Shown here piece by piece: positions 1 through 60,738 of a stretch of 64,000 nt of DNA; positions within the stretch are counted from its first letter, which is position 1; each line of letters starts with the position of its first letter. The stretch spans positions 116,387-180,386 of the forward strand of contig CAXHRJ010000001.1 in the NCBI GenBank assembly GCA_964018915.1, read 5' to 3'. The notes under the pieces were generated by a model, which saw nothing but the letters and a program-made list of their open reading frames with translations, had not been told where the DNA came from and ran no database searches. The translations under genes were made by a program, and so were the position numbers. This DNA comes from an uncultured Bacilli bacterium. GTDB taxonomy: Bacteria > Bacillota_I > Bacilli_A > RF39 > UBA660.

Positions 1-161
1 TAAACACTGGCCATATCCACTATTAAAGTAACAAATACATCTATTATTAAAGAGGAATAAATTCTATTTTCCAATGTATTCATCTTTCTTTTATTAAAAT
101 AAATTATCGCGATTAATCCAATATAAAAGATACTGGATATTTGAAAAAATAAACTAGTCAT
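1..161 (-). CDS. Window-edge partial ORF: N-terminus of a multi-pass membrane protein; the rest runs off the left edge
   Basis: ATG at 161-159 (minus) follows a GGTGA Shine-Dalgarno (forward tcacc 166-170). The translation MTSLFFQISSIFYIGLIAIIYFNKRKMNTLENRIYSSLIIDVFVTLIVDMASV is hydrophobic and stays open to position 1. It is absent from the ORF track only because it is truncated. Confidence 0.3.
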   Translation of the reverse strand, partial: MTSLFFQISSIFYIGLIAIIYFNKRKMNTLENRIYSSLIIDVFVTLIVDMASV

Positions 162-249
162 AACTTCACCTACTTTAATCTAATAATATTATATCATAGG
201 AAGAATAGAAAGAGTACCCAAAAAGAAAAAAAAGAGTCATTAGACTCTC

Positions 250-3324: not shown

Positions 3325-3334
3325 AAATCCTCCT

Positions 3335-7986: not shown

Positions 7987-8041
7987 ACAATCACCTCTAA
8001 TAGTAATCTATTATACGAATTTCTAATCAAAATGGCAAGCG

Positions 8042-14289: not shown

Positions 14290-14514
14290 TCAATCTAATT
14301 TAACAAGTATCACATCTTTTCCTATCTTCTCAATTTGATTCCATTTGATTTCTACAATATTACTGCTAAAAAGGGAAACTAAAAATCTATATTTTTCTAC
14401 TAATATGCCATTCATATTCCCATTAGAATCAATACTAACATCAATAATGTTCCCTATTTTTTTACCGTCACTAATATCTACTACATCTTTCTCTTGCAAA
14501 TCAGAAATCTTCAT
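14290..14514 (-). CDS. YlmC/YmxH-family PRC-barrel protein (sporulation-associated)
   Basis: 74 aa. MKISDLQEKDVVDISDGKKIGNIIDVSIDSNGN..GILV matches the family's characteristic N-terminus. Confidence 0.7.
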   Translation of the reverse strand: MKISDLQEKDVVDISDGKKIGNIIDVSIDSNGNMNGILVEKYRFLVSLFSSNIVEIKWNQIEKIGKDVILVKLD

Positions 14515-21270: not shown

Positions 21271-21448
21271 AAAAAATGCCAAAAGGTAGGCGTCCACTAA
21301 CGAATAAAACCTGTTCTACCAGGTGGGTGTCTTGCATTAGGCTTTAGGATTCTCCAATAAATTGAAGTTTTCAACACCACCTAAACACGCTGACTCCCAA
21401 TACGTTAATTAGTAGGTTTTTCAAAAAAGACAAACCATACCTTCTAGC
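21271..21448 (-). ncRNA. Candidate small RNA of about 178 nt with 6S-RNA-like rod architecture (ends approximate)
   Basis: Own promoter (see next feature) and no ORF. The 5' and 3' arms pair in register: aaggta/tacctt, acta..acg/cgttagt, aggtggtgt/acacc(c)acct. A roughly 20/18-nt internal bubble lies between the helices. A T7 run ends the element. Confidence 0.4.
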
Positions 21449-21454
21449 AATTTA

Positions 21455-26209: not shown

Positions 26210-27952
26210 CTATTTTTTCAAAGAAATATGTAATTCTTCTAATTGCTTTTCAGCAACAATATTTGGTGCTTCACTCATCAAACAAGAGGCACTTGCAGTT
26301 TTAGGAAACGCAATAACATCTCTAATATTTTCTGTTTCAGCTAAAAGCATAGTTAAACGGTCCAATCCAAAAGCCAAACCACCATGTGGAGGAGTTCCAT
26401 ATTTTAAAGCATCTACAAAGAATCCAAACTTTTCTTTAATTTCTTCGTCCTTTAATCCTAATGCCTCAAACATCTTATTCTGTACTTCTTGATTATGAAT
26501 ACGAATAGAACCTCCACCAGCTTCATAACCATTGATAACAATGTCATAAGCTTTTGAATAGCAATTTCCCGGATCACTAATTAATTTATTTACATCCTCG
26601 TCCTTTGGAGAAGTAAATGGGTGATGGCAAGCTACAAACCTACCTTCTTCTTCACTATATTCAAATGAAGGGAAATCTACTACCCATAACATTTCATATT
26701 TCGTTTTATCAATTAGTTCTAAATCTCTACCTAATTTTAGACGTAAGGCACCAAGACTTGTCTTTACAATCTCTTTCTTACCAGAAATAATAAATACCAT
26801 ATCATTCTTTTCTAGCTGCAAAGCACTAATGATTTCAGACTTTTCTTTATCACTTAACAATTTAGCAATACTTCCAGTCATTTCTTCTTCAAGTTTTAAG
26901 TATGCCAAACCACCAGCACGATAAGTTTTTACATAATCTGTCAATTTATCTATTTCTTTACGAGAATATTTATCAGCACAATTTTTAGCCACTATTGCAT
27001 TAATCATTCCATTTTCTTCTAATACCGCTTTTAAGAAAGCAATTTCGGTATTAGTAAATATAGAGCTGATTTCTTCTATTGGCATATCAAATCTTAAATC
27101 TGGCTTATCTGATCCATATAAATTGATAGCATCTGTATATTTCATTCTTCTAAGAGGAAGTGACACCTCTATTCCTTTTGCTTCCTTAAAAACAGAAGCT
27201 ACTAAACGTTCTGCTACATCCATAACATCGTCTTCTTCGACAAAACTCATTTCTATATCTATCTGTGTAAATTCTGGTTGTCTATCAGCCCTTAAATCCT
27301 CATCACGGAAACATTTGGCAATTTGAAAATACTTTTCCATTCCACCTACCATTAACAACTGTTTAAATATTTGTGGAGATTGTGGCAAAGCATAAAACTT
27401 TCCATCATTCACACGTGAAGGCACAAGGTAGTCACGTGCTCCTTCTGGAGTAGATTTGCAAAGAATTGGTGTTTCAATTTCTAAGAATCCTTCCTTATCT
27501 AAAAAGTTTCTAGTAGCAAGAGCGATTTTATGACGTAATCTCATAATTTCTTGCAATCTAGTTCTTCTTAAATCTAGATATCTATACTTTAATCTAGTAT
27601 CCTCTAAAGCAGTAGTATCCTCGCTAACTTCAAATGGTAATTCTAAAGAAGTATTTAAAATAGTTAGTCCTTCTACTTGTACTTCAATTTCTCCCGTTGC
27701 TAACTTATCATTCTTGCTCTCTCTTTCTAAAACGGTTCCTTCTACTTTTAAAACATATTCATTTCTTACTGTTTCTGCCATTTCATAAACAGCATCTTCT
27801 GGACGAACTACTAATTGAACAATTCCACTACGGTCTCTTAAATCAATAAAAAGTAATCCCCCTAAATTTCTTTTTTTTGCTACCCATCCATAAAGTTCTA
27901 CTGTTTCTCCTACATTCTTCTTGGATAATGTCACATTTTGAATCTTTTTCAT
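26210..27952 (-). CDS. aspS: Aspartate--tRNA ligase
   Basis: 580 aa. OB-fold N-terminus (LYGWVAKKRNLGGLLFIDLRDRSG), class II motifs (FRDEDLRADRQPEFTQID, GGGSIRIH, GLAFGLDRL). Confidence 0.95.
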   Translation of the reverse strand: MKKIQNVTLSKKNVGETVELYGWVAKKRNLGGLLFIDLRDRSGIVQLVVRPEDAVYEMAETVRNEYVLKVEGTVLERESKNDKLATGEIEVQVEGLTILNTSLELPFEVSEDTTALEDTRLKYRYLDLRRTRLQEIMRLRHKIALATRNFLDKEGFLEIETPILCKSTPEGARDYLVPSRVNDGKFYALPQSPQIFKQLLMVGGMEKYFQIAKCFRDEDLRADRQPEFTQIDIEMSFVEEDDVMDVAERLVASVFKEAKGIEVSLPLRRMKYTDAINLYGSDKPDLRFDMPIEEISSIFTNTEIAFLKAVLEENGMINAIVAKNCADKYSRKEIDKLTDYVKTYRAGGLAYLKLEEEMTGSIAKLLSDKEKSEIISALQLEKNDMVFIISGKKEIVKTSLGALRLKLGRDLELIDKTKYEMLWVVDFPSFEYSEEEGRFVACHHPFTSPKDEDVNKLISDPGNCYSKAYDIVINGYEAGGGSIRIHNQEVQNKMFEALGLKDEEIKEKFGFFVDALKYGTPPHGGLAFGLDRLTMLLAETENIRDVIAFPKTASASCLMSEAPNIVAEKQLEELHISLKK

Positions 27953-27970: not shown

Positions 27971-28140
27971 AAAAAAATCCTATAAAGATAGGGACGAATA
28001 CTCGCGGTGCCACCCTACTTCATAGAATTTCTATGCTCTTTCATTTCTTTAACGCAGAATTACGGTTATTTAACGTTTGGTGTCTTCTAATTCACTATAA
28101 ACTGATTTTCACCAACCATCAGCTCTCTACATTACAGGAA
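27971..28140 (-). promoter_or_regulatory. T-box riboswitch leader with an Asp (GAC) specifier, controlling aspS
   Basis: On the minus strand: AGAGAGC...GGTGAAA stem I elements (about 28128-28100). Candidate specifier GAC followed by A (forward gtc 28082-28084). T-box sequence GTAGGGTGGCACCGCGAG (about 28019-28002). Terminator tccctat cttt ataggat plus T7 (27994-27971). Confidence 0.8.
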
Positions 28141-28186
28141 AAATTATACTCCTCCAAACAAATAATACATACATTTTAATCCTTTT

Positions 28187-29506
28187 TTAAGAATTTGTCA
28201 ATCTCTCAATTACTTCTTCTACTGTAATTAAATCTTGACTACCAGTAACCATATCTTTAAAAGCTACCTTAGACTCTTTAACCTCATTCTCTCCAATTAC
28301 TAGTACATAAGGAATTTCAAGTCTATCTGCATATTTCATTTTTTGCTTCATTCCCTTATCCTGATAATAAACATCTGTTTTAATACCACTATTTCTTAAT
28401 TTACTAGCTGTTTCTAAAACATAGTTATTATTTTCCTTATCCATTGGAACAATGAGAACTTGACTAATTGTATTCTTACTCTCTCCAACTAAACCAATCT
28501 CTTTTAATTGAGAAAACAATCTAGTAAGTCCTATAGAAATACCAACTCCTGGTAAATGCTCACTAGTGTAGTAGTCTGCTAAATTCTCATATCTACCACC
28601 AGAACAAATACTTCCTAGTTTTGGATATTCATCTAATATCGTTTCATAAACTGTGCCTGTATAATAATCAAGTCCACGTGCTATGGTTAAATCAATTTTA
28701 AAGTAATCCTCATCCATAGCAAAACTTCTTAAAGATTTAATAACAGTTTCCAATTCGGATAAACCTATTTTAAATGTCTCACATTCTATTTTCAATGCTT
28801 TTAAAGAAGATAATTTCTCATCATTTGTTCCAGTAATTTCTAAAAATGCTAATATTTGATCAATTTGATTCATATTCAAATTGAGATTTCCTAGTTCTTC
28901 CTTAACAGCATCCCTACCAATTTTATCTATTTTATCAATGATTCTTAAAACATCAGATGAGATTTCCAATAGCCCTAAATTTTCAAAAAATCCATTTAAA
29001 ACTTTTCGGTTATTAATACGAATTGTAAATTTTCCTAAATTTAGTTTTTTAAATACCTCATAAATAACAGATGGAATTTCAGCATCATAAATTAAATCCA
29101 ATGTATCATTTCCAATGATATCGATATCACATTGATAAAACTCTCTGAATCTTCCTTTTTGTGGCCTTTCTCCCCTAAATACTTTAGATATTTGATAGCG
29201 CTTAAAAGGGAATATCAAATCATTATAATGCCCTGCTACATAACGTGCTAAAGGAACAGTTAAATCAAAACGTAAAGATAAATCTGTCTCCCCTTTGAAA
29301 AAACGATATATTTGTTTTTCTGTTTCTCCTCCTGCTTTTGCAAGTAACACCTCTGACAATTCTATTGTCGGAGTATCTAGTGGTAAAAAACCAAATTCTT
29401 CATAGACACTTCTAATAGTATCTACCATTTTGTTAAACATAATTTGATCTTGTGGTAATAATTCCATAAAACCTGGTAAGGTTCTTGGTTCTACTTTTTC
29501 TTTCAT
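28187..29506 (-). CDS. hisS: Histidine--tRNA ligase
   Basis: 439 aa. Class II motifs YRFFKGE..LRFDLTVPLARY, FRGERPQKGRFREFYQCD, GGRYENL, and a C-terminal anticodon-binding domain. Confidence 0.9.
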   Translation of the reverse strand: MKEKVEPRTLPGFMELLPQDQIMFNKMVDTIRSVYEEFGFLPLDTPTIELSEVLLAKAGGETEKQIYRFFKGETDLSLRFDLTVPLARYVAGHYNDLIFPFKRYQISKVFRGERPQKGRFREFYQCDIDIIGNDTLDLIYDAEIPSVIYEVFKKLNLGKFTIRINNRKVLNGFFENLGLLEISSDVLRIIDKIDKIGRDAVKEELGNLNLNMNQIDQILAFLEITGTNDEKLSSLKALKIECETFKIGLSELETVIKSLRSFAMDEDYFKIDLTIARGLDYYTGTVYETILDEYPKLGSICSGGRYENLADYYTSEHLPGVGISIGLTRLFSQLKEIGLVGESKNTISQVLIVPMDKENNNYVLETASKLRNSGIKTDVYYQDKGMKQKMKYADRLEIPYVLVIGENEVKESKVAFKDMVTGSQDLITVEEVIERLTNS

Positions 29507-36878: not shown

Positions 36879-37121
36879 CTATCTACTATTGTTTGATTTG
36901 TATTGATAAATATTTTCATTAGACGCATTTAAAATATCATCTACCATTTGATGTAATGATAAATCGTTTGCTGAAGCCCATTTGATATTACTCAAATAAC
37001 TCCAAATATCTTTTTTCTCTATCCCTTCATAACCTTTTCTTTTCAATTCAGAAATCTTAACTGATAAAGCAGGTTCTAACCGATTATAGAGTTGTTTTAG
37101 GTCTTGAAACTCAATCTCCAT
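36879..37121 (-). CDS. ComN-like post-transcriptional regulator (YrzD family)
   Basis: 80-aa protein lying between spoVB and secDF, as in B. subtilis. Carries the KKDIWSYLSNIKW segment. Confidence 0.6.
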   Translation of the reverse strand: MEIEFQDLKQLYNRLEPALSVKISELKRKGYEGIEKKDIWSYLSNIKWASANDLSLHQMVDDILNASNENIYQYKSNNSR

Positions 37122-39330: not shown

Positions 39331-39358
39331 AAAAATCAGGATATCCTGATTTTTATTT
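39331..39358. terminator. Bidirectional intrinsic terminator between the LysM-like gene (+) and folD (-)
   Basis: A-run, then atcagga (39335-39341) / tcctgat (39344-39350), then T-run. Confidence 0.6.
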
Positions 39359-40195
39359 TGTCGTTGGCTTATTATTGTAACAAGTAACAATATTCTCAAG
39401 TAGCATAGCAACTGTCATTGGGCCTACTCCTTTTGGAACAGGTGTGATATAAGATGCTTTTTTTTCAACTTTTTCAAAATCTACATCCCCGCATAATTTA
39501 CCATCTACACGGTTTACCCCAACGTCTATAACAACCGCATCGTCTTTTACCATATCTGCTGTTATCATTTTAGGAGATCCTACTGCAGCTACCAAAATAT
39601 CTGCCTGTTTTGTAATAGATTTTAAATCCACCGTTTTACTATGACATACAGTAACTGTTGCATCCTTTGCCAACATCAAAGTGGCTAATGGCTTACCAAC
39701 TAGTTTTCCCCTACCAACAATTACAACATGCTTACCCTCTATAGGAATTTCATATTCTTCTAATATTCTCATGACACCGAGTGGGGTGCAAGGAACAAGC
39801 GTTTTTCTACCATTTATCATTCTTCCAGTATTGATATCAGTTAGACCATCAACGTCTTTACTGTTACTAATAGAATTTGCTATTCTCTTTTCATTATAAC
39901 GCTCTGGCAAGGGTAATTGAACTAAAATTCCATTGACATAATCATCATTATTTAATTCTTTAATTTTATTAATTATTGTTAATTCTGGAGTATCTGCATC
40001 AAACTTATAATGCCTAAAATAAACACCTACTGCATTGCATGCTTTTTCTTTTCTCTTAATATAGGAATTACTAGCAGGATCATCCCCCACCTGAATAACT
40101 GCTACACTAGGTCTTATCATGCAACTTTTTAACTGTTGTTTCATTTCATCCTGAATTTTTAAACTTAATGCTTCTCCATCCATAATTGTACTCAT
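39353..40195 (-). CDS. folD: Bifunctional methylenetetrahydrofolate dehydrogenase/methenyl-THF cyclohydrolase
   Basis: SNSYIKRKEKAC, DVDGLT, VVIVGRGKLVGKPLATLM, PVPKGVGPMTVAMLL. Confidence 0.95.
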   Translation of the reverse strand: MSTIMDGEALSLKIQDEMKQQLKSCMIRPSVAVIQVGDDPASNSYIKRKEKACNAVGVYFRHYKFDADTPELTIINKIKELNNDDYVNGILVQLPLPERYNEKRIANSISNSKDVDGLTDINTGRMINGRKTLVPCTPLGVMRILEEYEIPIEGKHVVIVGRGKLVGKPLATLMLAKDATVTVCHSKTVDLKSITKQADILVAAVGSPKMITADMVKDDAVVIDVGVNRVDGKLCGDVDFEKVEKKASYITPVPKGVGPMTVAMLLENIVTCYNNKPTTK

Positions 40196-40320: not shown

Positions 40321-40350
40321 AAAAGAAAAACTACAAATTTATTGTAGTTT
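40321..40350 (-). terminator. Intrinsic terminator overlapping the tagH 3' end
   Basis: On the minus strand: aaactacaa taaat ttgtagttt followed by TTCTTTT. Confidence 0.5.
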
Positions 40351-41095
40351 TTTGTTCCATAAATTTTTTATATTTAGGTAAAACTTCTTCTACTGGACCA
40401 TGTTCCATAAAACAACCATCATTAATCCATAGCACCTCATTGCATAAAGAAGCGATAGTATCCATATTATGAGAAACAATTAAAACAGTACGATGTTCAT
40501 CTGAAATAAGCTCTTTCATTTTATTATAACTTTTCTCTTTAAACTGAGCATCTCCAACACTTAAAACTTCATCAATTAACATAATATCAGTCTCCAAAAT
40601 AGCAGTAATTGCAAACGCTAATTTAGAATACATACCTGAAGAATATGTCTTTACAGGTTTGTAGATAAAGTCCCCAATGTCAGCAAATTCTATGATTTCT
40701 TTTTCCTTAGCTTTAATTTGCTCTTCAGAAAATCCTAAAAGCATACCAGATAAATAAATATTTTCTTTCCCAGTAAGTTTCTTATTGAAACCAACTCCTA
40801 TTGACAACAATGATACTGAATTTCCATGTAAATCAATCATTCCTTTATCTGGAGAAAATATTCCTGCTATTGCTCTTAACATAGTAGATTTACCAGACCC
40901 ATTTCGGCCAACTATTCCAAGAATCTTGCCTTCTTCCAATTCAAAATTAATTCCTTTTAGGGCTGGAAACAGTTCTACTCTAGATTTTAACTTTGCCCAA
41001 GAAGCACGTATTGAAGTCTTTTTAAGACCACGGTATGTTATATGCAAATCTTGTACAGTAACAGATATCTTTTTACTATTTTCATTATTTTTCAT
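40331..41095 (-). CDS. tagH: Teichoic-acid export ABC transporter, ATP-binding subunit
   Basis: Walker A GRNGSGKST, signature YSSGMYSKL (the TagH/Wzt-type variant), Walker B IMLIDEVLSVGD. Paired with the tagG-like permease. Confidence 0.85.
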   Translation of the reverse strand: MKNNENSKKISVTVQDLHITYRGLKKTSIRASWAKLKSRVELFPALKGINFELEEGKILGIVGRNGSGKSTMLRAIAGIFSPDKGMIDLHGNSVSLLSIGVGFNKKLTGKENIYLSGMLLGFSEEQIKAKEKEIIEFADIGDFIYKPVKTYSSGMYSKLAFAITAILETDIMLIDEVLSVGDAQFKEKSYNKMKELISDEHRTVLIVSHNMDTIASLCNEVLWINDGCFMEHGPVEEVLPKYKKFMEQKTTINL

Positions 41096-41883
41096 TAAAT
41101 CACCTTCGCATAACTATTTTCATTTTTATGAATAACATGAACACCTACCATACATAGTAAAATACCAACAATTAACCATATACCTAGTCCTTCAAAACTT
41201 GGTAATCTTTGTTCCAAGGCTACTTTTCTCAGCTCATTCATACAAAAAGCAATAGGATTCAGTCTTAATAAGAAAAATACTAGTGTAGGACTTTTAGATA
41301 ATTTTTTAGAAATATTATAGAATACTCCTGATAAATAAAACACCATCCTTAAACCAATATTTGTAAGATTTGCTAAATCATTCAAAGTGACTCCGAAGTG
41401 CATCAAAAGAAGCCCAATTCCAAAAGTAATAACATATAAAACAATAAAAATTGGGATAAAAAATAGCATATGCCAAGTGAATGGAACATGTTGAAAAATC
41501 ATAAGAGCAATCGCAATTAATAAAGAGATTCCCATTTTAAATACATAGGTAAAAGATTTAGATAAAAGTAAAATATATTTTGGAATATATACTTTGGTAA
41601 CTAAATCCCTATTATTTATAATTAATTTCACGCTACCATTAATCATACGATTAAAAAAATCCCAAGCGGTTAATCCTAAAAAAACAAAAGATGCAAAATA
41701 TTTTTCATCATTTGGAAATACTACACCAAATACAAATGTATAAATTAACATAAAGCAAAGTGGTTCTATAATCCACCAAAGCCAATTTAAATAAGAATCG
41801 GCTACTTCACTTTTTAGTTCTGCTTTAGCAGAATAAACAGCATATTTATAATACTTTTTTATATTACGGAAAAACTTTTTCAT
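41095..41883 (-). CDS. tagG: Teichoic-acid export ABC transporter, permease subunit (ABC-2 type)
   Basis: 6-TM ABC-2 permease with the LNWLWWIIEPL motif near the N-terminus. Start set to the ATG at 41883 (MKKFFRNI), 1 nt after the upstream stop. Confidence 0.8.
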   Translation of the reverse strand: MKKFFRNIKKYYKYAVYSAKAELKSEVADSYLNWLWWIIEPLCFMLIYTFVFGVVFPNDEKYFASFVFLGLTAWDFFNRMINGSVKLIINNRDLVTKVYIPKYILLLSKSFTYVFKMGISLLIAIALMIFQHVPFTWHMLFFIPIFIVLYVITFGIGLLLMHFGVTLNDLANLTNIGLRMVFYLSGVFYNISKKLSKSPTLVFFLLRLNPIAFCMNELRKVALEQRLPSFEGLGIWLIVGILLCMVGVHVIHKNENSYAKVI

Positions 41884-41884
41884 A

Positions 41885-42454
41885 CTAACCCTTCTTTCCA
41901 ATGTAGAAAACACTTAACACTTTTGAAAATTGATATAAAATTTCATTACTTTTCTCCATAGCAATCGTTTTTTCAAACGCCTTACCACCAATAGTAAGTG
42001 CTGCTATTACTCCTGTTGTAACAAGGGAAGAAAGCAGTAATGATACATCCCACATACTAGAAACCGATGTTGCAATTACTACCCCCGCAGAACCAGATAC
42101 AATTCCACAAATATCTCCTATTACATCATTACAGAAAGAAGAAACTTTCCCTGCATTTCTCTTTAACATAACAGCCACTTTAGCAGGCTTTATTTTTCTC
42201 GCACTCATGGAATGAAATGGTGCTTCTTCAGCTGTAGCAACAGCCATCCCTACCATATCAAATAAAACTCCTATTAATATAAATAATAATACTATAATAG
42301 TACTAACTAATAGGCTTGTTTCTTTTAAAGCTACCTCAGATATAAAAGAAAAAGTAACAGATATAGCAAAAGCTAAAAGAGCTAATTCTAACGCCCATAT
42401 ATAATCTTTCCACTTACTGTTTTTCTTACTTTGTTTATTCCCTTTTGTTTTCAA
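41885..42454 (-). CDS. Hypothetical membrane protein (possibly DUF21/CNNM-like TM domain)
   Basis: 189 aa with 4 predicted TM segments. The ATAEEAPFHSMSARK segment is reminiscent of CNNM TM domains. Low certainty. Confidence 0.35.
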   Translation of the reverse strand: MKTKGNKQSKKNSKWKDYIWALELALLAFAISVTFSFISEVALKETSLLVSTIIVLLFILIGVLFDMVGMAVATAEEAPFHSMSARKIKPAKVAVMLKRNAGKVSSFCNDVIGDICGIVSGSAGVVIATSVSSMWDVSLLLSSLVTTGVIAALTIGGKAFEKTIAMEKSNEILYQFSKVLSVFYIGKKG

Positions 42455-42514: not shown

Positions 42515-43465
42515 TTAATGCTTTCTATTTTTCTCTGTCTCTTTCACAATATATACAGGTCTAGCCTTTGTTTCCAAATAAGTTTTTGCTAAATATTGCC
42601 CAATAATTCCTGTACAGAATAGTTGAACACCACCTACTAAGAAGATAATACATGCTAAACTTGGCCAACCACTAACTGGATCTCCCCAAATTAATGTTTT
42701 AAGAATAATAACTATTATCATAACAAAAGCGATGAAACAGAATAATACTCCAATAATAGCAGCTAATACAAGTGGCACTGTAGAAAAAGCAGTTATGCCA
42801 TCTAATGCATAAGAAAACAGTTTCCAGAAACTCCATTTTGTCGTTCCAGCTACTCGCTCTTGATTCTCAAACTCAATCCATTTAGTATCAAAACCAACAA
42901 AACTGAATAATCCTTTAGAGTATCTATTATATTCCTTCATAGATAAAATAGCATCTACCATTTGTCTAGTCATTAATCTAAAATCTCTAGCACCTGCTAC
43001 CATTTCCGTTTTAGAAATCGCTCCAATAATACGATAGTACCATTTTGTACAAAACTTTCGGAAGAAAGAATATCCATTTCTAGAGGTACTTTTAGTAGCT
43101 ACACAGTCATATCCCTCTTCCTTAATTAAACGATACATTTCTTCTAATAAATATGGTGGATCTTGTAAATCTACATCCATAGTGGTTACATATTCTCCTG
43201 TTGCATATTCTAATCCTGCAAGCATGGCAGCTTCTTTTCCAAAATTTCTTGAAAAAGAAACATATCGAACTTTTTTATCCTGGTTTGATAGTTTTCTAAA
43301 CTCCTCTAACGTTTTATCTTTAGAACCATCATTAACAAAGATTAATTCAAACTCTACTTGTTTTTTCATCTTTTCCATTAGTTTTGACATTTCAGCATAA
43401 AATAATGGTACTGCTTCTTCCTCGTTATAACATGGAATTACTATTGATATTGTTTCTTTTTTCAT
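42515..43465 (-). CDS. GT2 polyprenol-phosphate glycosyltransferase (GtrB/CsbB-like)
   Basis: ISIVIPCYNEEEA, VNDGSKD, MDVDLQDPP, and two C-terminal TM helices, as in GtrB. Confidence 0.8.
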   Translation of the reverse strand: MKKETISIVIPCYNEEEAVPLFYAEMSKLMEKMKKQVEFELIFVNDGSKDKTLEEFRKLSNQDKKVRYVSFSRNFGKEAAMLAGLEYATGEYVTTMDVDLQDPPYLLEEMYRLIKEEGYDCVATKSTSRNGYSFFRKFCTKWYYRIIGAISKTEMVAGARDFRLMTRQMVDAILSMKEYNRYSKGLFSFVGFDTKWIEFENQERVAGTTKWSFWKLFSYALDGITAFSTVPLVLAAIIGVLFCFIAFVMIIVIILKTLIWGDPVSGWPSLACIIFLVGGVQLFCTGIIGQYLAKTYLETKARPVYIVKETEKNRKH

Positions 43466-44981
43466 ATATTACTCCTTCTCTATTTCTACGTTTCAATAAA
43501 ACATATTTAAATTCTATATTCTCAAAAACTTGATCAACCACTTTTATTACTTCATAATTTTCATGCAAATAAGGAATACCTGTTTCATAAGCATTTCTCT
43601 TCTTTCTTATACGAATAATAACAAATTCTGTATTTTTATTTTTAATCGCATTTCTCTGGGCATCCTCATTATCAGGAAAAGCGTCATAATTAATATTAAT
43701 TTTTTCAAAATACTTTTCTGTAGGTAAAATATCTGCCACTGTATAAAATCCACCATCGATATTACCGTAATAAAGAAGTGTTGGATTTTTTTCTTGATTC
43801 ATAATATCTGAGAAAATAAACTGCGCTAAGTTTTCTTTCTTGGTACCAAGAAAATAAGTATTGGGGCTTAATACATAGACAAACATCCATAATATGGTAA
43901 CAACAAACACTGTTACATATTTCATAGGAATATATATTCTAGCACAAATATTAGAAACAGATATTCCAAATAAGACAACAAATGGACTCATTACAAAGAA
44001 ATAGTACAAATGATTCTTTAACCCAATATAATTGAAGAAAAATGTAAATAGAAATAAGACAAATATTCCTACTTTTAACCATTTTTTAATTACCACTTTA
44101 TCTTTCAGCATAGTAATCATTCCAATGAATAAAGTAAACATATAAATAGAATTCCTATTCATGTTTTGTTTCAAAAGTTTCCACAATGTTTGAATTCTGT
44201 CCCAAAATGGTACAGTAGCCTCTGCTTTTGGATACAAAACAATGTTCAAATAAAAATAAACATCCCATAAATCTTTTAAAGATCCCATCATTAAGAAATA
44301 AATAAGAACTGGAAAAGTTACTATCAATATTCCACATAAATAAGCCAAAATAATTTGAACTATTTTCTTATATTGTTTACTTATTAGTAGTAAGAGTCCT
44401 AAAAAGAAAACCCAACCAATCCAAAATCCTAGTAAAATAAATTTTGTCCAAAGTACTATGCCTACAATAATACCTTCCCAAAAGTATAGCTTTGAAGTTT
44501 CTTCCAAGTATCTCTTATCTTTCATTAAGTATAAAAAATGATACAAACTAATTATAAAGCAAGGAAGTAGCAACTCTTCACAGCTTCCTCCGTGGGTAAA
44601 AGAAGGCATCGTAAGAAAAACTGCTAGTAAAAACGGTGATGTTGGATAAAACTGTTTTTCTCTTCCATATAATCTTAATATTTTATAATAATAACAAAGT
44701 ACTAAAGCAAATGAAAAAATCTCTAACAGAAAAATTCCAAGAAACGTCTTATTAGATAATAAGTAACCAATTCCATATACAAAATATAAAATGGGTCCTT
44801 TCTGCTCAAATAAATCACGATATGGTACCAATCCATTCATAAGCCCTTTACCCATTGTAAAAAAAGCATTCGCATCTACCCAATCATTCATTGGATAAAG
44901 TGGTGATGATTTAGTCCCAATCCATAAAAAAAGTAATGACAAAAAGATTGAATAAATAATTACTTTTCTCCACGATTTCAT
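43425..44981 (-). CDS. GT-C-fold polytopic membrane glycosyltransferase (ArnT/PMT-like)
   Basis: 518 aa with at least 10 TM segments. First extracytoplasmic loop has an acidic motif (PMNDWVDANAFF). It sits directly upstream of the GtrB-like gene. Confidence 0.6.
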   Translation of the reverse strand: MKSWRKVIIYSIFLSLLFLWIGTKSSPLYPMNDWVDANAFFTMGKGLMNGLVPYRDLFEQKGPILYFVYGIGYLLSNKTFLGIFLLEIFSFALVLCYYYKILRLYGREKQFYPTSPFLLAVFLTMPSFTHGGSCEELLLPCFIISLYHFLYLMKDKRYLEETSKLYFWEGIIVGIVLWTKFILLGFWIGWVFFLGLLLLISKQYKKIVQIILAYLCGILIVTFPVLIYFLMMGSLKDLWDVYFYLNIVLYPKAEATVPFWDRIQTLWKLLKQNMNRNSIYMFTLFIGMITMLKDKVVIKKWLKVGIFVLFLFTFFFNYIGLKNHLYYFFVMSPFVVLFGISVSNICARIYIPMKYVTVFVVTILWMFVYVLSPNTYFLGTKKENLAQFIFSDIMNQEKNPTLLYYGNIDGGFYTVADILPTEKYFEKININYDAFPDNEDAQRNAIKNKNTEFVIIRIRKKRNAYETGIPYLHENYEVIKVVDQVFENIEFKYVLLKRRNREGVIYEKRNNINSNSML

Positions 44982-45116
44982 AAATACTCCTAGCCATTAA
45001 AAGTATACCATCTTTTTCCTTAAAACTCAACTATTTGCTACGATAGCAAGCTTTCATTTCTATTCTACTTATAAATTTTATCATTATAGGTAAATGCTTT
45101 TTTTCAAAAAATGAAA

Positions 45117-45148
45117 AAATAAAACGAAAAAAGGACCAATGGTCCTTT
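45117..45148 (-). terminator. Intrinsic terminator ending the large non-coding unit
   Basis: On the minus strand: aaaggacc att ggtccttt followed by TTTCGTTTTATTTTTT. Confidence 0.75.
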
Positions 45149-45742
45149 ATTTACCTCTTTAATGGCTATTAATATAGTTAACTTTACGTCATAGGTCAAG
45201 CAGAATTTCTCTAGTTTCCACATCACGTTACCATGATTGCGGTTCCCCTTTAAGGAAACTAATACATCGTCACCGAATGTATGGCTTGATTGCCACTTAG
45301 TACGCACTGCAATCCTATATTACACAACACTCTAGGAGTTTTCCTCACCAACTGTCCATTGTTAGTTCTTTTTTGCAACATATGTTTCAAGCAGCGATAC
45401 ATAACTAGTTCTAGCTAAAAATTAGTTATGCTGAACAACTATCCCCATATCTCACTCAAGGCAAGCTACACTACCCATAACTTTCGCCACGAAGTAGGTT
45501 CAAGCCTTACCTGTATTTTATCCATCAACTTACGTGTATAGGTAAAACACATAATAAGGTCTCCATGAATGCTGGGTCGTTTACGTATGCCATTACGGAC
45601 GCCCAACACTCTACCTTCCAGCATCCACCCCAAACTGGGCGTAAGAAGCAAACACCAGAAGTTTCACAGATGTGCTCTTTAACAGCTTTTTAATTCTGTC
45701 TTCACAATGAACATTATTGACTAGAATAATGTGCCACCAATG
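45125..45742 (-). ncRNA. Candidate large structured non-coding RNA of about 620 nt; class not identified; ends approximate
   Basis: It is bracketed by a consensus promoter and an intrinsic terminator. It holds only 61- and 67-aa ORFs, neither with an SD. GC is 58/120 (48 %) in 45541-45660 versus 14/60 (23 %) in 45781-45840 (hand counts). It has many perfect local helices, e.g. cattatt/aataatg, acgccca/tgggcgt, cataacta/tagttatg and atacat/atgtat. Confidence 0.6.
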
Positions 45743-45748
45743 ACTAAC

Positions 45749-45777
45749 ATTTTATCAAAAAATACTGAACTTGTCAA
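45749..45777 (-). promoter_or_regulatory. Near-consensus sigma-A promoter driving the large non-coding unit
   Basis: On the minus strand: TTGACA (45777-45772), exactly 17 nt, TAAAAT (45754-45749). Confidence 0.7.
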
Positions 45778-45819
45778 ATTGGCAAATTCAGTATCTATTA
45801 TATGTATTTACAAAAAAAA

Positions 45820-46839
45820 TTATACTTCCCATTTCATAACTGTTTTAAAGTCGTTATTTCGATCAGATTCAAAAGCTTTCGTCATATCATTAATAGAATG
45901 AACCACCACTTCCTCTGAAATGATTTTCTCTAAATATTCATGAGTTTCTGGATATTCTTCCAAAAATTTAATCGCAGCATCAAAATCTTCATAGCCGCTT
46001 CTACTATTTCCTAAAAGAGTAATTCCTTTTTCCAATACCATACGAGTATTGATTCCTACTAAATCTTCTGATACCCCCATTAAAGCAATAGAGCCTTGTG
46101 GGTTAATTATGTCAATAATTTGATTGATAGCACTCTCAGCGCCTGTTCCACCAACACATTCAAAAGCATGATCTACAGTTAAACTTTCTGGAACTTCACT
46201 AACTACATAAGTTTCATCTGCAAAAGGAAAATATTGCAATTTATTCCAATTTGTACCAAATACTACTATTTTAGCGTTTGGAAAAATCTTTTTAAGAATA
46301 AGCGCAGTTACATAACCGACACTTCCACATCCCCAAATTCCTAGAGTTTGCTTTTTTAAATGACTGTATTGGTTAAAATGTTCAATCGCATTCATCGTAA
46401 CACTCATAAGTTCCAATAAAACAGCAATTCTATCATCAATATTATGATAAGGAATAATTCTATCCCTATCCATTAATACAACAGACTGCATAAAACCATC
46501 AAAACCACTAGCTCTAAATTTGCTACTACGCAAATAGTTTTCTTTCACAATACTATCATGCTCAATAGGAGTATTTGGAATCATTACAACCTTGGTTCCT
46601 GGTGCAAAATCTCCCTTAGTATCTTTAAGTACTACGCCAACTGCCTCATGTATTAAACACATAGGAAGTTTTTTGGCTAATACCTTTGGATCCCTTTTCC
46701 CTTGATAGTATCTTTCATCTGCTGCACAAATAGACAAATATAGCGGTCTTACTATAACTGTATTTTCATTTTCTACTTCCTCAACAAAGTCTATTCCAAT
46801 TCTCTTAGGAGATTGTAATCTATAGTGATAATTAATCAT
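45820..46839 (-). CDS. tarJ: Ribulose-5-phosphate reductase (ribitol-5-phosphate dehydrogenase)
   Basis: Matches S. aureus TarJ along its length: VIVRPLYLSICAADERYY, KLPMCLIHEAVG, GTKVVMIPNTP, FGIWGCGSVGY, DHAFECVGG, GSIALMGVSE, VLEKGITLLGNSRSG. Confidence 0.9.
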   Translation of the reverse strand: MINYHYRLQSPKRIGIDFVEEVENENTVIVRPLYLSICAADERYYQGKRDPKVLAKKLPMCLIHEAVGVVLKDTKGDFAPGTKVVMIPNTPIEHDSIVKENYLRSSKFRASGFDGFMQSVVLMDRDRIIPYHNIDDRIAVLLELMSVTMNAIEHFNQYSHLKKQTLGIWGCGSVGYVTALILKKIFPNAKIVVFGTNWNKLQYFPFADETYVVSEVPESLTVDHAFECVGGTGAESAINQIIDIINPQGSIALMGVSEDLVGINTRMVLEKGITLLGNSRSGYEDFDAAIKFLEEYPETHEYLEKIISEEVVVHSINDMTKAFESDRNNDFKTVMKWEV

Positions 46840-47548
46840 GATTTAATCCTACTTCCAAAATAGCATTCGCTAATTTTAAGTCATGCATTGTAGTTACTTT
46901 TAAGTTATATTCCTCACCACGCACAAATCCCACGTCTTTTCCCTTTACAACAAAGATCTTACAAGCATCTGTCAATATCTCTTTTTCTTCACTTGTTAAA
47001 GTCTCAAAGGTTGACATCAATTCTTTGATTTTAAATGTTTGTGGAGTTTGACCTAGATATAGGAAATCTCTTCTAGGAATATTACTCAATACTTTACCGT
47101 CTAATGATTCTACTATAGTGTCAGCAGCAGGAATAATGGTATCAACTGCATCATATTTTTTCACACCCTTAATATTATCAGTAATAATTCTATAATCAAC
47201 AAACGGTCTTACAGCATCATGAGTAATAATAACATCTTTTTCTGTTAGCCCAAAAGTATCTTCAATATAATGACAACCATTCATAATGGTACCATTTCTA
47301 TCTTTTCCGCCTTCTATAATAACAATTTTGTCATTAGGTCCAATATATTTTAAAACTAAATCACTCATATACCCCATCCAATCCTTTGGACATCCAATTA
47401 ATACTTTAGCTATTTCTGGAACCAATAAAAATTGTTCTACTGTATGAATGATAATAGGTTTATCTCCTAACATTAGAAATTGTTTTGGCATGTCGGTATT
47501 TCCCATTCGTTTACCAACACCACCTGCTAATATTTCTGCATAAATCAT
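46832..47548 (-). CDS. tarI: D-ribitol-5-phosphate cytidylyltransferase
   Basis: MIYAEILAGGVGKRMGNTDMPKQFL..KPIIIHT parallels TarI (IspD family). Start moved to the ATG at 47548, which follows GGTGA. It overlaps the tarJ start. Confidence 0.9.
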   Translation of the reverse strand: MIYAEILAGGVGKRMGNTDMPKQFLMLGDKPIIIHTVEQFLLVPEIAKVLIGCPKDWMGYMSDLVLKYIGPNDKIVIIEGGKDRNGTIMNGCHYIEDTFGLTEKDVIITHDAVRPFVDYRIITDNIKGVKKYDAVDTIIPAADTIVESLDGKVLSNIPRRDFLYLGQTPQTFKIKELMSTFETLTSEEKEILTDACKIFVVKGKDVGFVRGEEYNLKVTTMHDLKLANAILEVGLNHD

Positions 47549-47655
47549 AAATTCACCACTTTCTGAATTCATTATATCATGAATGCTTAAAATAAACAAC
47601 AAACGAAAAGACGAATAAAAATCCGTCTTCTATGTAAATTTACACTCTCTAATTT

Positions 47656-55370: not shown

Positions 55371-56909
55371 TTATTTTTTTCTATTTTTCTTCCACTCTTT
55401 ATAATCTACAAATTCTAATTCGGTAGAATCATCTAAACCATAAAATAATTTAAAGCGATGAACAAAAACTTCGTTTCCTGGATTAGGACATTGCATATAT
55501 CTTTGAAATGGTATCTTAGGTAATAATAATTCCATATCAGAATTATGCTTTTGTATATACCTTATACGTTCCATTTCTACTTTAAAGCAATAACCATATA
55601 TACATAATAGAAAACTACAAAAGCATAAAGAAATCATGCATAATACATTATTAAAATACACTGACTCCTTTTCCACAACTGCATCTAACAATTCGCAAAC
55701 TACTAGTACAAATAAAGCATACGTTGGAAAAAAGCATCTTGGTCCTATCGGGGTTACTACTAAAAGTGGAGCAGCTAGGATAACAATTGATGCTATCTCA
55801 AATAGTATTCTTTTCTTCTTACATTCATCCTCTATAGTAATAAATACAATAATCACTAAAGAAATAGCAAAGGCAATAGCTATAATTGCTTCTAAATATA
55901 ATTTATATTTATTATGAATGAAAACATTTGATCCACCTATTACTTTTTTATAAAGAATATAACTTAAAAAGCCAATAACAACAAATGTCGCCATATTCAA
56001 AATATTATATTTCCATCTTTGGGCTTTTTGCTTATTCTTTTTATAAAATCTAAAGACAAGGAACAATGATAATAAACATAAAACAATGTTTAAAAATACA
56101 TTTTGATAAAGAATAAAATCAGCTAGTTCATTAACGAAAGTTCGCAAAAAGCGAATAATAATATTATCTTGCTCTATAGTTCTGTAACCGTCTTCAGCAT
56201 GGAAAATAGTTTGATAGGCCTCATTTGAAAACATCAATATAGCACCTAATATAGAACCAATCATATAAAATATATTTGCAAGGACTATTTTATGTTTCCT
56301 TATAAAGTAGTATATTACAATTCCTATGGATAATAAAACATTATATAAAGTGGCATGTTCAACAAACAAAGAATTTATAAATCCTAGCATTAAAAAAGGA
56401 ACTACCCACCTATTTTTTATTTCTATATCATTATTAGTAAAAATATTTTTATTAAAAGAAAGATAAAATAAGACAATGATAATGGGTATTACATAATTAG
56501 CAAAACCAGAAGTCCAAGCTACTGCTTGCGCTAAAACACTAATAGGCATTGCTAATAATAGAATGATAGCAGACAAAATAATCATTTTGCTACTCTTTAC
56601 TAGTTTTTGAATAAGGTAGACTAATGCCACAAAAGATAATGAAATAACAATAGCTCTTACAATACGATTTCTAGTTAAAAGCATTACCAACAAATTTCCT
56701 ACCCAACGACCATTATAATTAGCAAACAAAGAATTTAGTCTATCTTCACCGATAGAAGTCCCCCATGCCCAATCATCATGGGTATATGGGAAAAAATAAC
56801 TGACCAGTAAAACAATTGCAAATATTGCAATATATATGTAAATATATAGTTTGCTCTGTTTTTCTTGTCTCTTTTCCACTTCTTTCTTTCTACTCATTCT
56901 CTCACTCAC
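55371..56909 (-). CDS. Polytopic membrane protein, probable GT-C-like/Gtr-type surface-polymer modifying enzyme (copy 1)
   Basis: 512 aa with at least 11 TM segments and an FPYTHDDWAWG loop motif. Paralogue of residues about 165-648 of the 58792-60738 product. Confidence 0.5.
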   Translation of the reverse strand: MSERMSRKKEVEKRQEKQSKLYIYIYIAIFAIVLLVSYFFPYTHDDWAWGTSIGEDRLNSLFANYNGRWVGNLLVMLLTRNRIVRAIVISLSFVALVYLIQKLVKSSKMIILSAIILLLAMPISVLAQAVAWTSGFANYVIPIIIVLFYLSFNKNIFTNNDIEIKNRWVVPFLMLGFINSLFVEHATLYNVLLSIGIVIYYFIRKHKIVLANIFYMIGSILGAILMFSNEAYQTIFHAEDGYRTIEQDNIIIRFLRTFVNELADFILYQNVFLNIVLCLLSLFLVFRFYKKNKQKAQRWKYNILNMATFVVIGFLSYILYKKVIGGSNVFIHNKYKLYLEAIIAIAFAISLVIIVFITIEDECKKKRILFEIASIVILAAPLLVVTPIGPRCFFPTYALFVLVVCELLDAVVEKESVYFNNVLCMISLCFCSFLLCIYGYCFKVEMERIRYIQKHNSDMELLLPKIPFQRYMQCPNPGNEVFVHRFKLFYGLDDSTELEFVDYKEWKKNRKK

Positions 56910-57993: not shown

Positions 57994-58829
57994 AATATCT
58001 CCTTATTAATTTCTTTAAAAGAAGGAAAATAAGAAAGATTTTGTGACAATAGTTCTTCCCTTACTTCCTTATTACAACTTTCTATATTCTCAATGATATT
58101 TTTTGAAGTATTATCAGAATAATGTAATCCGTCAGGACTTTCAAAACCATTTTCCAAAAGGAAAGCATAAGTATTGCAGAAAAAAATTTCTTCAGATTCT
58201 ATTTCTCCTCTAATGTTTTGATTAAATTCTTCTATACTGCCATTATTTGTCATTTTTCTTGTTTTAAATTTACCAGTTCTTAGAATTTCTTCATTTACTG
58301 GATTTACAGACGCAAAAAACAAATTATGCTGATTCCATTTCTTTTTAAAATATTTATAATAATCCGCATATTGACTATAATCACAAATATGCTTTCCATC
58401 AGGTGTATTACCAACTTCTATAGAATTTAAATCATTTACTCCTAAATTAAAAACAATTGTAAAATGTTCCTCTGGATTCTCAGCAATCAATTTATCCACT
58501 TCTGGTTCTACAGTTTCCCATAAATAATTGCATGTTACAGCATTTTTAGCTATAAAAGTAAGTCCCTCTTTTTGTACAACCTTACTAGCAGCATACATTC
58601 TCGAATCTCCTACAATAATAATTCTATTACTATCATAATACTTAGGAATAGTTGGACTATTATTTAAGTCTTCATCACCTACTGTTTTTTCTTCTTCTTT
58701 ATTTTTCAATGCCTCCTTTTTATCATAATTATTTGCGATTATAAATAGACTCAAAGTAATTATAAGAAGAAGAAATCCCATAAGAATTTCTCTATTTCTC
58801 ATACTTCTTCTTCCACTCCTTATAATCAA
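57990..58829 (-). CDS. Membrane-anchored SGNH/GDSL-type hydrolase (copy 2)
   Basis: IIIVGDSRMY, GVNDL, DGLHY. A 4-nt overlap with the AT3 gene suggests translational coupling. The true start may be the internal Met at 58802. Confidence 0.7.
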   Translation of the reverse strand: MIIRSGRRSMRNREILMGFLLLIITLSLFIIANNYDKKEALKNKEEEKTVGDEDLNNSPTIPKYYDSNRIIIVGDSRMYAASKVVQKEGLTFIAKNAVTCNYLWETVEPEVDKLIAENPEEHFTIVFNLGVNDLNSIEVGNTPDGKHICDYSQYADYYKYFKKKWNQHNLFFASVNPVNEEILRTGKFKTRKMTNNGSIEEFNQNIRGEIESEEIFFCNTYAFLLENGFESPDGLHYSDNTSKNIIENIESCNKEVREELLSQNLSYFPSFKEINKEIL

Positions 58830-60738
58830 TAAATTCTAATTTTGTATTTTCTCTTAATCCATAAAATTGTCTATATTGTGTTCTAAACCACTCACTTCTT
58901 GGGTTTGGCACCTGCATAAAATTTCCATATGGAATATTAGGCAATATCAATTTTTCCGCTGTTCTATTTTTTTCCATATAAGCTACTCTCTTTTGCTCTA
59001 CCATAAAACAATAACCATAGATTACTAAATAAAAACTAATAATCACATAAGACGCTACTCTAAATATCCATTGTAAATCTATCTTTAATTTTTCTGTAAT
59101 TAAATCTAAAAATTCAGCTGCTACCAGTACAAATAACGCATAAGTTGGAAAAAAGCATCTTGGACCAATTGGTTTTACAATTAAAAGAGGTAAAGAAATC
59201 ATTGCTATACTACCAATTTCAAATAACATTCTTTTCTTTTTTTCACTATTACTAATTGCAACAACAATAATAGAAATAATTGCCACCGCATAAACCAAAA
59301 TTAAAATTCCTTCTATGAAATCCTGATAACTATTTTTGATAAACGGATTGGCACCATTAGTCATCTTTAAGAAAAATTGGTAAGAAATAAAAATAATTAA
59401 AACAAAATTTGCTACCTTTAACAGCACTTTTTTTAAATTACTAATCTTATTCTTTCTAGAGTTATTTAAAAATTGATAAGAAAAAATTAATATAATAAGG
59501 CATAGAACTACATTCAATATAAAATTATTGTTTACTAATAAGTCTTTAAAATCACCAAAATAAGTTTTAATTGCCTTTACAATAAAATTTCCATCTTCTA
59601 TAGAACGATACCCATCTCCTTCTCCAAATAATGTTCTATATCCACTATTAGAAAACATTAGGATACTTCCTAAAATAGACCCAATAAAATAAGCAATATT
59701 TGGTAGTGATACCTTTTTAAATTTTATAAACTGATAGCCCAATAAAAATAATCCTAATAAAAATAAATAAATAGTTAAATGCTCCATGAATAATGTTCCT
59801 GCAAAACCTAAAATTAGGAAAGGAAAGCTCCATAAATGTGATAAATTTTCTAATTTTTCTTGAAATAAAGTTTTATTTTTATAAATTATAAATAATGCCA
59901 CTAACACTGGGGGAACATAATTTGCAAACCCTACTGTCCAAGCGAAACTTTGTGCAAACATTCTAACCGGCATTAATAAAATTAATAATATTGAAAAAAA
60001 TGGAATATATTTATTCTCACCATTTACTAATTTCTTAATACATACAATAATTCCTAACATCGTAAAAGAGATTGTGAGAGACCTTAAAATTCTGACTCTT
60101 GTAAGAAGCATCCCCAAAGAATTTCCTAACCATCTACCATTAAAATTAGAAAATCCGTTTTGCAATCTTTCTAAACCAGTTGTACTTCCCCAATCCCAAT
60201 CATCATGGGTATAAGGGAAAAAGTAACAAAGTACTAATACTAAAAAAAAGAAAACTAGATAAAACCATTGCTCTTTAGTAATTTTTCTTTTTTTTTCTGT
60301 TTTTTCTTTCTTAGAGAAAACAATGAATTTACTTAATACATAATTTCCTACTATTACACTAAATTGCGTCAAAACAGTCCATACAACAACATAAATATTG
60401 GAATTTAACTTTAAATACGTAATAAAGAACCAAAGAATTACAGATTCCATTACTAAAGTAACTATTCTAGAAGAAAAGAATAGAAAGATCTCCTTTAGAA
60501 TTTTCTCATTTTTACTCTTAAATACAAAAGTACGATTTGTAATATATGCAAATACTACTGCTACCACCCAAGATACAATAATAGAGATTTGTAATTGCAA
60601 ACCATCCTTCGCATCTAGTATTGTAAACAGTAAAGCATATTTTACAATTAATGAAATAACAGTTGTAAGTACTCCAATAATAAGGTAATTAATCATTTCT
60701 TGATATTTACCATATACTTCCTTCAATTTTTCTACCAT
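58792..60738 (-). CDS. Fusion of a GtrA-like domain with the FPYTHDDW-type polytopic membrane protein (copy 2)
   Basis: Residues 1-160 have the GtrA pattern (YLIIGVLTTVISL..., NRTFVFKS, SKFIVFS). The remainder parallels the 512-aa paralogue (FPYTHDDWDWG, GPRCFFPTYALFVLV, LEFIDYKEWKK). Confidence 0.6.
   Translation of the reverse strand: MVEKLKEVYGKYQEMINYLIIGVLTTVISLIVKYALLFTILDAKDGLQLQISIIVSWVVAVVFAYITNRTFVFKSKNEKILKEIFLFFSSRIVTLVMESVILWFFITYLKLNSNIYVVVWTVLTQFSVIVGNYVLSKFIVFSKKEKTEKKRKITKEQWFYLVFFFLVLVLCYFFPYTHDDWDWGSTTGLERLQNGFSNFNGRWLGNSLGMLLTRVRILRSLTISFTMLGIIVCIKKLVNGENKYIPFFSILLILLMPVRMFAQSFAWTVGFANYVPPVLVALFIIYKNKTLFQEKLENLSHLWSFPFLILGFAGTLFMEHLTIYLFLLGLFLLGYQFIKFKKVSLPNIAYFIGSILGSILMFSNSGYRTLFGEGDGYRSIEDGNFIVKAIKTYFGDFKDLLVNNNFILNVVLCLIILIFSYQFLNNSRKNKISNLKKVLLKVANFVLIIFISYQFFLKMTNGANPFIKNSYQDFIEGILILVYAVAIISIIVVAISNSEKKKRMLFEIGSIAMISLPLLIVKPIGPRCFFPTYALFVLVAAEFLDLITEKLKIDLQWIFRVASYVIISFYLVIYGYCFMVEQKRVAYMEKNRTAEKLILPNIPYGNFMQVPNPRSEWFRTQYRQFYGLRENTKLEFIDYKEWKKKYEK

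Follow-up and report, generated by a model that had tools for sequence, protein, structure and literature searches.

An OLE RNA Gene and a Predicted oapA Gene Separated by Two Glycosyltransferase Genes in a Teichoic Acid Locus of an Uncultured Gut Bacilli Bacterium

Introduction

OLE RNA is a large bacterial noncoding RNA that was described in 2006 and has been reported from more than 2,800 genomes, those of uncultured gut Bacillota among them. By analogy with the work on Halalkalibacterium halodurans, an OLE RNA would be expected to fold as a compact dimer, held at the cell membrane by a dimer of the CNNM-like membrane protein OapA. OapB, an SBB/KOW protein, and OapC, a protein of the L7Ae type, would join this particle, and the ribonucleoprotein would help the cell to cope with short-chain alcohols, cold, excess Mg2+, and poor carbon sources. 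In H. halodurans, ole is part of a long polycistronic transcript, and a membrane-spanning portion of the RNA has been proposed on the basis of recent cryo-EM work (PMC12265935). Variant OLE RNAs have been described in gut lineages with reduced genomes, namely, TANB77 (variant 1) and RF39 (variant 2) (Fernando and Breaker 2024).

Here we analyze a stretch of 64,000 nucleotides (referred to as the window) from an uncultured Bacilli bacterium (GenBank assembly GCA_964018915.1, contig CAXHRJ010000001.1). An earlier note on this DNA, made from the sequence alone, had pointed to a stand-alone, structured, noncoding RNA of about 0.6 kb, in the size class of OLE, ROOL, and GOLLD, and had suggested that it might be a new large RNA. 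The stand-alone RNA is there, but it is an ordinary copy of OLE, an RNA that is already known, and it does not represent a new class. The features of the locus are listed in Table 1.

Table 1. Positions of the ole locus features in the window, in order along the forward strand
Feature	Position	Strand	Basis or remark
folD	39353-40195		past tagG/tagH
tagG/tagH-like teichoic acid export ABC transporter	permease 41095-41913; ATPase 40331-41095	-	directly 3' of oapA
oapA (OLE-associated protein A), predicted; 189 aa, TTG start	41885-42454	-	DxxxD, fold, neighborhood
Predicted long helices of OapA	residues 6-41, 47-73, 100-134, 138-166		AlphaFold
GT2 glycosyltransferase, 316 aa, PgfS/ArnC-like, polyprenyl-phosphate sugar synthase type	42515-43465	-	PF00535, E 7.6e-33
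Polytopic membrane protein, 518 aa, GT-C-type glycosyltransferase by homologues	43425-44981	-	between ole and oapA
Promoter-like site ahead of GT-C gene	45030-45002	-	with TG
Intrinsic terminator of ole	45148-45120	-	8-bp stem, 3-nt loop, T run
ole, OLE RNA gene (Rfam RF01071), full-length type, 608 nt	45146-45753	-	cmscan
P13-type hairpin, candidate primary OapB site	45262-45282	-	AUACAU-U-CG-[GUGA]-CG-AUGUAU; sequence and Rfam alignment
Predicted long-range helix, two sides	about 45728-45721 and 45279-45272 (A2 columns 34-41 and 514-521)		RNAalifold
Sigma-A-type promoter of ole	45777-45749	-	TTGACA-17-TAAAAT, 11/12 matches, TG extended -10
tarJ-like alcohol dehydrogenase	45820-46839	-	directly upstream of ole
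tarI, ribitol-5-phosphate cytidylyltransferase	46832-47602	-	upstream of ole; NF001183, 352 bits
Stand-alone DUF6056 protein	55371-56909	-	
GtrA-like flippase domain fused to DUF6056	58792-60738	-	

Results and Discussion

The noncoding segment encodes an OLE RNA

When the whole window was searched against Rfam 15 with the curated thresholds, three matches were obtained. One of these, to the OLE family, reached 384.6 bits (the gathering score is 50) with an E value of 1.9e-109 and covered positions 1 to 616 of the 616 positions of the model without truncation. The segment is almost certainly an ole gene, and the OLE (ornate, large, extremophilic) RNA that it specifies is of the full-length type. 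The earlier note had proposed an Rfam scan and had named reclassification into a known family as one of its outcomes, which is what happened.

Other RNA families did not account for the segment. ROOL, GOLLD, raiA, RNase P, and tmRNA were not matched at gathering score anywhere in the window, nor at an E value of ≤1 in a permissive Rfam scan of positions 45050 to 45850 (801 nt). The same permissive scan yielded mir-268, OrzO-P, and MicX at chance level, far below threshold. ROOL, GOLLD, and the raiA motif are like the window RNA in size class and complex structure. They differ from it in that their families were unmatched and that their typical prophage or tRNA cluster contexts are absent from the window, in agreement with what the earlier note had said of the context.

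Homologues of the RNA are widespread among related loci. Relatives of the candidate partner protein OapA, described below, were collected from bacterial assemblies at one genome per species, which provided 80 loci. nhmmer found a homologue of the window RNA in 77 of these, always on the same strand as the oapA homologue, and two of the homologues that were rechecked in Rfam matched OLE with 373.8 and 362.9 bits. The window RNA and 34 homologues were aligned with MAFFT (alignment A2, 35 sequences, not fitted to structure or model), and about 190 columns were invariant even with Clostridia-type homologues included. RNAalifold predicted 146 pairs from the 35 RNAs, 92 of which keep their pairing through compensatory changes on both sides, and the covariation term was -26.7 kcal/mol. 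The RNA is real, conserved, and structured. Thus, both conservation and covariation in relatives, which the earlier note had suggested as checks, were found.

Aligned to the family consensus, the window RNA retains most of the OLE helices and the extended invariant blocks. The only clear loss, and one point at which it differs from classical OLE RNAs, is a 12-nt hairpin at model positions 424 to 435, which is also missing in most of the Bacilli relatives in alignment A2. Several of the local helices listed in the earlier note are present in the family consensus (GACAG/CUGUU, the CAGCAUAACUA/UAGUUAUG hairpin, AUACAU/AUGUAU, and the GGC-GAAA-GUU hairpin), whereas acgccca/tgggcgt and gtttcc/ggggaac, also from that list, are absent from the consensus pairing, in which GCCCA forms a loop and the partner of AGUUUCC is GGAAACU, at a more downstream position.

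[quoted passage not shown] The P13-type hairpin of the window RNA has a GUGA loop and a 1-nt bulge, as that description requires; to judge from its sequence, the hairpin to which OapB binds in the model organism is preserved intact here. It is followed by a second GNRA hairpin (GUAA), at about positions 45223 to 45236.

The variant OLE RNAs resemble the window RNA in that their hosts are uncultured gut Bacillota known from metagenome assemblies only. However, the window RNA retains the region that is shortened or lost in the variants, with an Rfam alignment that spans the whole model, and it has the OapB-binding loop, which is often missing from variant 1. Because the whole model is covered and the OapB loop is kept, the window RNA is of the full-length type rather than a trimmed variant. 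The assignment to OLE holds on every defining feature that could be tested, and nothing counts against the family.

Two further observations concern the architecture of the RNA. RNAalifold predicted a long-range helix that joins the invariant UAUUCUAG near the 5' end to CUAGAGUG, also invariant, which lies about 390 nt farther downstream. This helix is missing from the Rfam consensus line, and both of its sides are nearly invariant, so that there is no covariation signal either way. A CUAG palindrome is found within both UAUUCUAG and CUAGAGUG, and the published OapA-binding palindromes may be the counterpart. The second observation is that the OLE RNAs of the two closest species (L005, positions 3277 to 3869, and L006, positions 3279 to 3872) are about 21 nt shorter at one hairpin tip (A2 columns 254 to 276), which is kept in the window RNA and in most other relatives. 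The absence of this tip from the two closest relatives points to recent size variation in that arm of OLE.

A predicted oapA gene is present in the same locus

The predicted oapA gene is 2.7 kb downstream of ole on the same strand, with two genes in between; in OLE loci generally, oapA is most often the next gene downstream. Its 189-aa product had no match in Pfam or NCBIfam, PF01595 included, even at an E value of ≤10, and therefore the gene is easily overlooked. The 518-aa product of one of the two intervening genes likewise had no Pfam or NCBIfam match at an E value of ≤10, and neither protein had a match in a sequence search of the PDB. Because the domain and PDB sequence searches were empty, the identities of these two proteins were drawn from homologues, structure prediction, and gene neighborhood.

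A DxxxD motif is a distinctive feature of OapA (PMC11332333). This motif is present in the 189-aa protein as D109-V-I-G-D113 and is invariant in all 24 sequences of an alignment of the protein with its homologues (alignment A1). A weak match to PF01595 (CNNM domain) was observed in some homologues. An AlphaFold model computed on the 24 sequences (pLDDT of 80) has four long helices and several short ones. The top five Foldseek matches of this model in the PDB, 7M1T_B (E value of 7.7e-4), 7M1T_A, 7M1U_A, 7CFF, and 7CFG, are membrane domains of CNNM/CorB/CorC magnesium transporters, and 7M1U is the published top structural match of H. halodurans OapA (PMC11332333). OLE was upstream of the oapA homologue and on the same strand in 77 of the 80 related species, and the two were separated by no more than 400 nt in 65 of the 80 (median, 92 nt). 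By its motif, its predicted CNNM/CorB-like fold, and its gene neighborhood, the 189-aa ORF is predicted to be OapA. The published definition of OapA is a protein of about 190 aa with four membrane helices, a DxxxD motif, a CNNM-like fold, and linkage to ole (PMC11332333, PMC12265935), and the window protein agrees on these points. A published trait that sets OapA apart from true CNNM domains is the lack of a conserved proline typical of the latter.

In two loci, L012 (oapA homologue at 8001 to 8534) and L033 (5522 to 6070), no OLE was found by nhmmer or Rfam within the DNA examined, which extended 8 kb upstream of the oapA homologue in L012 and 5.5 kb in L033, the latter being a whole 10.4-kb contig. 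In these genomes, ole may be farther off or on a different contig; alternatively, oapA may occur here in the absence of OLE RNA.

No oapB or oapC gene was found among the window ORFs of 90 aa or more, nor among five short intergenic ORFs read by eye. Linkage of oapB and oapC to ole is not expected; given an RNA of the full-length type with an intact P13 site, both genes would be predicted to occur in the full assembly.

Predicted envelope polymer genes surround and separate ole and oapA

The locus is like that of H. halodurans in its RNA (about 600 nt, with invariant blocks, covarying helices, and the GNRA-plus-bulge OapB hairpin), in a DxxxD-containing, CNNM-like predicted OapA encoded in the same locus and on the same strand, and in the presence of folD nearby. 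It differs in that ole has its own promoter and terminator rather than being transcribed in a long polycistronic message. It also differs from the classical ole locus, in which the neighbors are isoprenoid, DNA repair, and related genes, in that the neighbors here are teichoic acid genes and two glycosyltransferase genes part ole from oapA.

Homologues of the 518-aa protein match PF13231 (PMT_2) or PF27757, and one of them is named 'Glycosyltransferase RgtA/B/C/D-like'. The 316-aa GT2 protein scored 314 bits with the NCBIfam PgfS model and 165 bits with the ArnC-like model, both below the curated cutoffs. In the two closest species, both of which are rabbit gut MAGs (L005 and L006), the gene order is ole, GT-C, GT-C, GT2, oapA, tagG, tagH, and folD. 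This split layout, common to the window and the two closest species, must therefore be inherited rather than an assembly artifact.

Positions 39 to 62 kb of the window form one envelope polymer locus. It includes genes for a TagO-like GT4 protein, the GtrA-DUF6056 fusion, the second DUF6056 protein, an acyltransferase, a GDSL esterase, and four TarL/TarF-type phosphotransferases, followed by tarI and tarJ and then by ole, the GT-C and GT2 genes, oapA, and tagG/tagH. Both DUF6056 proteins probably represent additional transferases of the GT-C type, with the flippase partner built in. Similar neighbors recur elsewhere: tagG/tagH is 3' of oapA in 6 of the 80 related species, in the order oapA-tagG-tagH (L005, L006, L007, L010, L013, and L051), and a CsbB/PgfS-like GT2 gene is no more than 8 kb away in 12 of the 80.

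The ole and oapA genes are at least 1 kb apart (1 to 6 kb) in 10 of the 80 related loci. The gap contains GT-C and GT2 genes in L005 and L006 and a GT2 gene in L077; in L026 it contains genes for a 477-aa protein without assignment, a GT2 protein, and two small EamA-type membrane proteins. One orthologous polysaccharide deacetylase (about 415 aa, PF01522, 58 to 68% identity between species) is encoded in the gap in L008, L009, L014, L015, and L027, accompanied in L027 by a sulfatase-family (LtaS-like) enzyme and in L009 by an AMP-binding enzyme and a hybrid histidine kinase. In L051, the intervening gene encodes an acyltransferase-3-like protein whose score is below the Pfam cutoff. Thus, where ole and oapA are split, the annotatable genes in the gap mostly modify cell envelope polymers.

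One possible reading of these arrangements, which we consider unlikely, is that a functional coupling exists in this gut Bacilli lineage between the OLE particle and the pathways that make or modify wall teichoic acid or other envelope polymers. Such a coupling is compatible with the identity of the RNA as OLE and would add to it, and it would explain the placement of ole-oapA and the recurrent gap genes. The pair sits inside a wall teichoic acid cluster in the window, tagG/tagH and GT2 genes recur near it in other species, and glycosylating, deacetylating, and acylating genes are found exactly between ole and oapA in what would be about four independent events. The cell wall genes dltE and yqhY are among the published ole neighbors, and contact of the RNA with the wall has been speculated on (PMC12265935, PMC11332333). 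However, the loci are phylogenetically related, and the evidence is thin because it comes down to about four insertions and one clade-level placement in a teichoic acid cluster when counted as evolutionary events. Furthermore, plain adjacency of ole and oapA without such genes is the arrangement in 65 of the 80 species, the gap in L009 holds genes of other kinds as well, and envelope loci are hot spots of gene shuffling. In the literature searched, no paper was found that names OLE RNA together with teichoic acid. The earlier note had also suggested a possible link to cell envelope biogenesis; the neighborhood evidence leans that way, yet it is weak and phylogenetically correlated, and the idea itself is already in the OLE literature.

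ole is predicted to be a self-contained transcription unit

The ole gene lies in 838 nt without genes (positions 44982 to 45819), between the start of the 518-aa gene at 44981 and the stop of the tarJ-like gene at 45820. The earlier note had described this gap as lacking a credible coding sequence and as containing a near-perfect sigma-A promoter, followed about 620 nt downstream by a clean intrinsic terminator, and all three descriptions were confirmed. The promoter is the top-scoring promoter-like site of the region. It is kept at the equivalent place in L005 (3254 to 3282) and in the more distant relative L013 (7203 to 7231). The terminator hairpin (45148 to 45130, minus strand) consists of AAAGGACC-ATT-GGTCCTTT and is followed by a T run; it is the one terminator-like site observed in the region, compared with 0.3 expected from shuffled sequence. 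The equivalent hairpin 3' of OLE in L013 is at 7824 to 7841, also followed by a T run, and that of L005 (3868 to 3886) was reported on the opposite strand only. With a strong sigma-A promoter and an intrinsic terminator of its own, ole is most likely transcribed as a separate and abundant RNA of about 0.6 kb.

The RNA is upstream of the GT-C/GT2/oapA genes on the same strand, and read-through of the terminator is possible, an arrangement that would also be expected of a cis-acting 5' leader or riboswitch-like element governing the downstream operon. We regard this as very improbable. A strong intrinsic terminator ends the RNA, a separate promoter-like site precedes the GT-C gene, and quite different genes follow the same RNA in relatives. 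In addition, OLE has been described as the RNA of a trans-acting particle (PMC12265935). The oapA gene is probably transcribed from the promoter-like site preceding the GT-C gene. Even in L013, where ole and oapA are adjacent, oapA has a promoter-like site of its own.

Between promoter and terminator, the segment is GC enriched over about 610 nt and contains stop codons in every frame. The OLE RNA is 39% GC, compared with 29.6% for the whole window, and the GC fraction within the segment is 0.40 to 0.43 versus 0.26 to 0.30 in the flanks. The earlier note's count of 58 G or C residues among the 120 positions from 45541 to 45660 was exact, but its count for the 60 nt directly upstream of the promoter was 14, which on recounting was 13. 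The two short ORFs that it listed as the only ones, of 61 and 67 aa, are both present in the segment and offer the one reason to consider a decayed protein-coding gene or a small-protein locus. The chance that this is what the segment represents is negligible. Each of the six frames has 10 to 20 stop codons in the window segment and 8 to 26 in the homologous segments from five relatives, and the longest open stretch differs from relative to relative. Conservation tracks base pairing and not codons, and according to the earlier note, neither ORF has a ribosome-binding site.

Just as negligible is the prospect of a new giant structured RNA unrelated to OLE, ROOL, GOLLD, RNase P, and tmRNA, which had only the impression of an unsuitable genomic context in its favor and has against it the full-length covariance model match and the predicted oapA gene in the locus. 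The earlier note had set OLE aside for want of an oapA-like neighbor, wrongly, because the predicted oapA gene is present 2.7 kb downstream.

Host and other features of the window

The window comes from an uncultured gut bacterium of low GC content in the class Bacilli, and the closest loci come from records labeled as uncultured Bacilli gut MAGs. Its sequence is also found, without differences, in assembly GCA_965646225.1. The window encodes pyruvate formate-lyase and its activase, and the host is therefore probably anaerobic. A Bacillota host, typically anaerobic or extremophilic, is the habit of the OLE family, and the window host agrees with it. Bacilli-type ole-oapA pairs were also found in assemblies labeled as Roseburia, Bacteroidaceae, Muribaculaceae, or 'Candidatus Scybalousia' (L013, L015, L033, L039, L052, L055, L064, L066, L080, and L084). 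'Candidatus Scybalousia' belongs to the Bacteroidales in the NCBI taxonomy. The assemblies with such labels are probably mislabeled or contaminated bins.

The window contains two further RNAs, a T-box leader (27987 to 28165, minus strand, 117.6 bits) and a 6S RNA (21272 to 21453, minus strand, 78 bits). The T-box lies between hisS (28187 to 29506) and aspS (26210 to 27952) and thus seems to regulate aspS alone rather than both genes. A 688-aa protein (12195 to 14261, minus strand) has the unusual combination of a GT4/GT1-type glycosyltransferase (residues 42 to 311) fused to an ApbE flavin-transferase domain (residues 388 to 665). Two small intergenic genes were noted as well. The 74-aa product of one (14290 to 14514, minus strand) looks by eye like the YlmC/YmxH sporulation protein family, and the 80-aa product of the other (36879 to 37121, minus strand) has an identical copy in L001 with a match to PF13797 (post-transcriptional regulator).

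Implications

In annotation terms, the noncoding region between tarJ and the GT-C gene becomes ole and the hypothetical 189-aa gene becomes the predicted oapA. The lack of an adjacent oapA gene is no ground for excluding OLE, as demonstrated by the related species in which the two genes are 1 to 6 kb apart. That envelope modification genes recur in the neighborhood of ole and oapA and in the gap between them is a minor clue to the role of the OLE particle. If the OLE particle were coupled to envelope polymer synthesis or modification in these bacteria, the locus would support, at the genomic level, the published proposal that OLE RNA senses the cell wall or makes contact with it, and would offer a way of testing that proposal.
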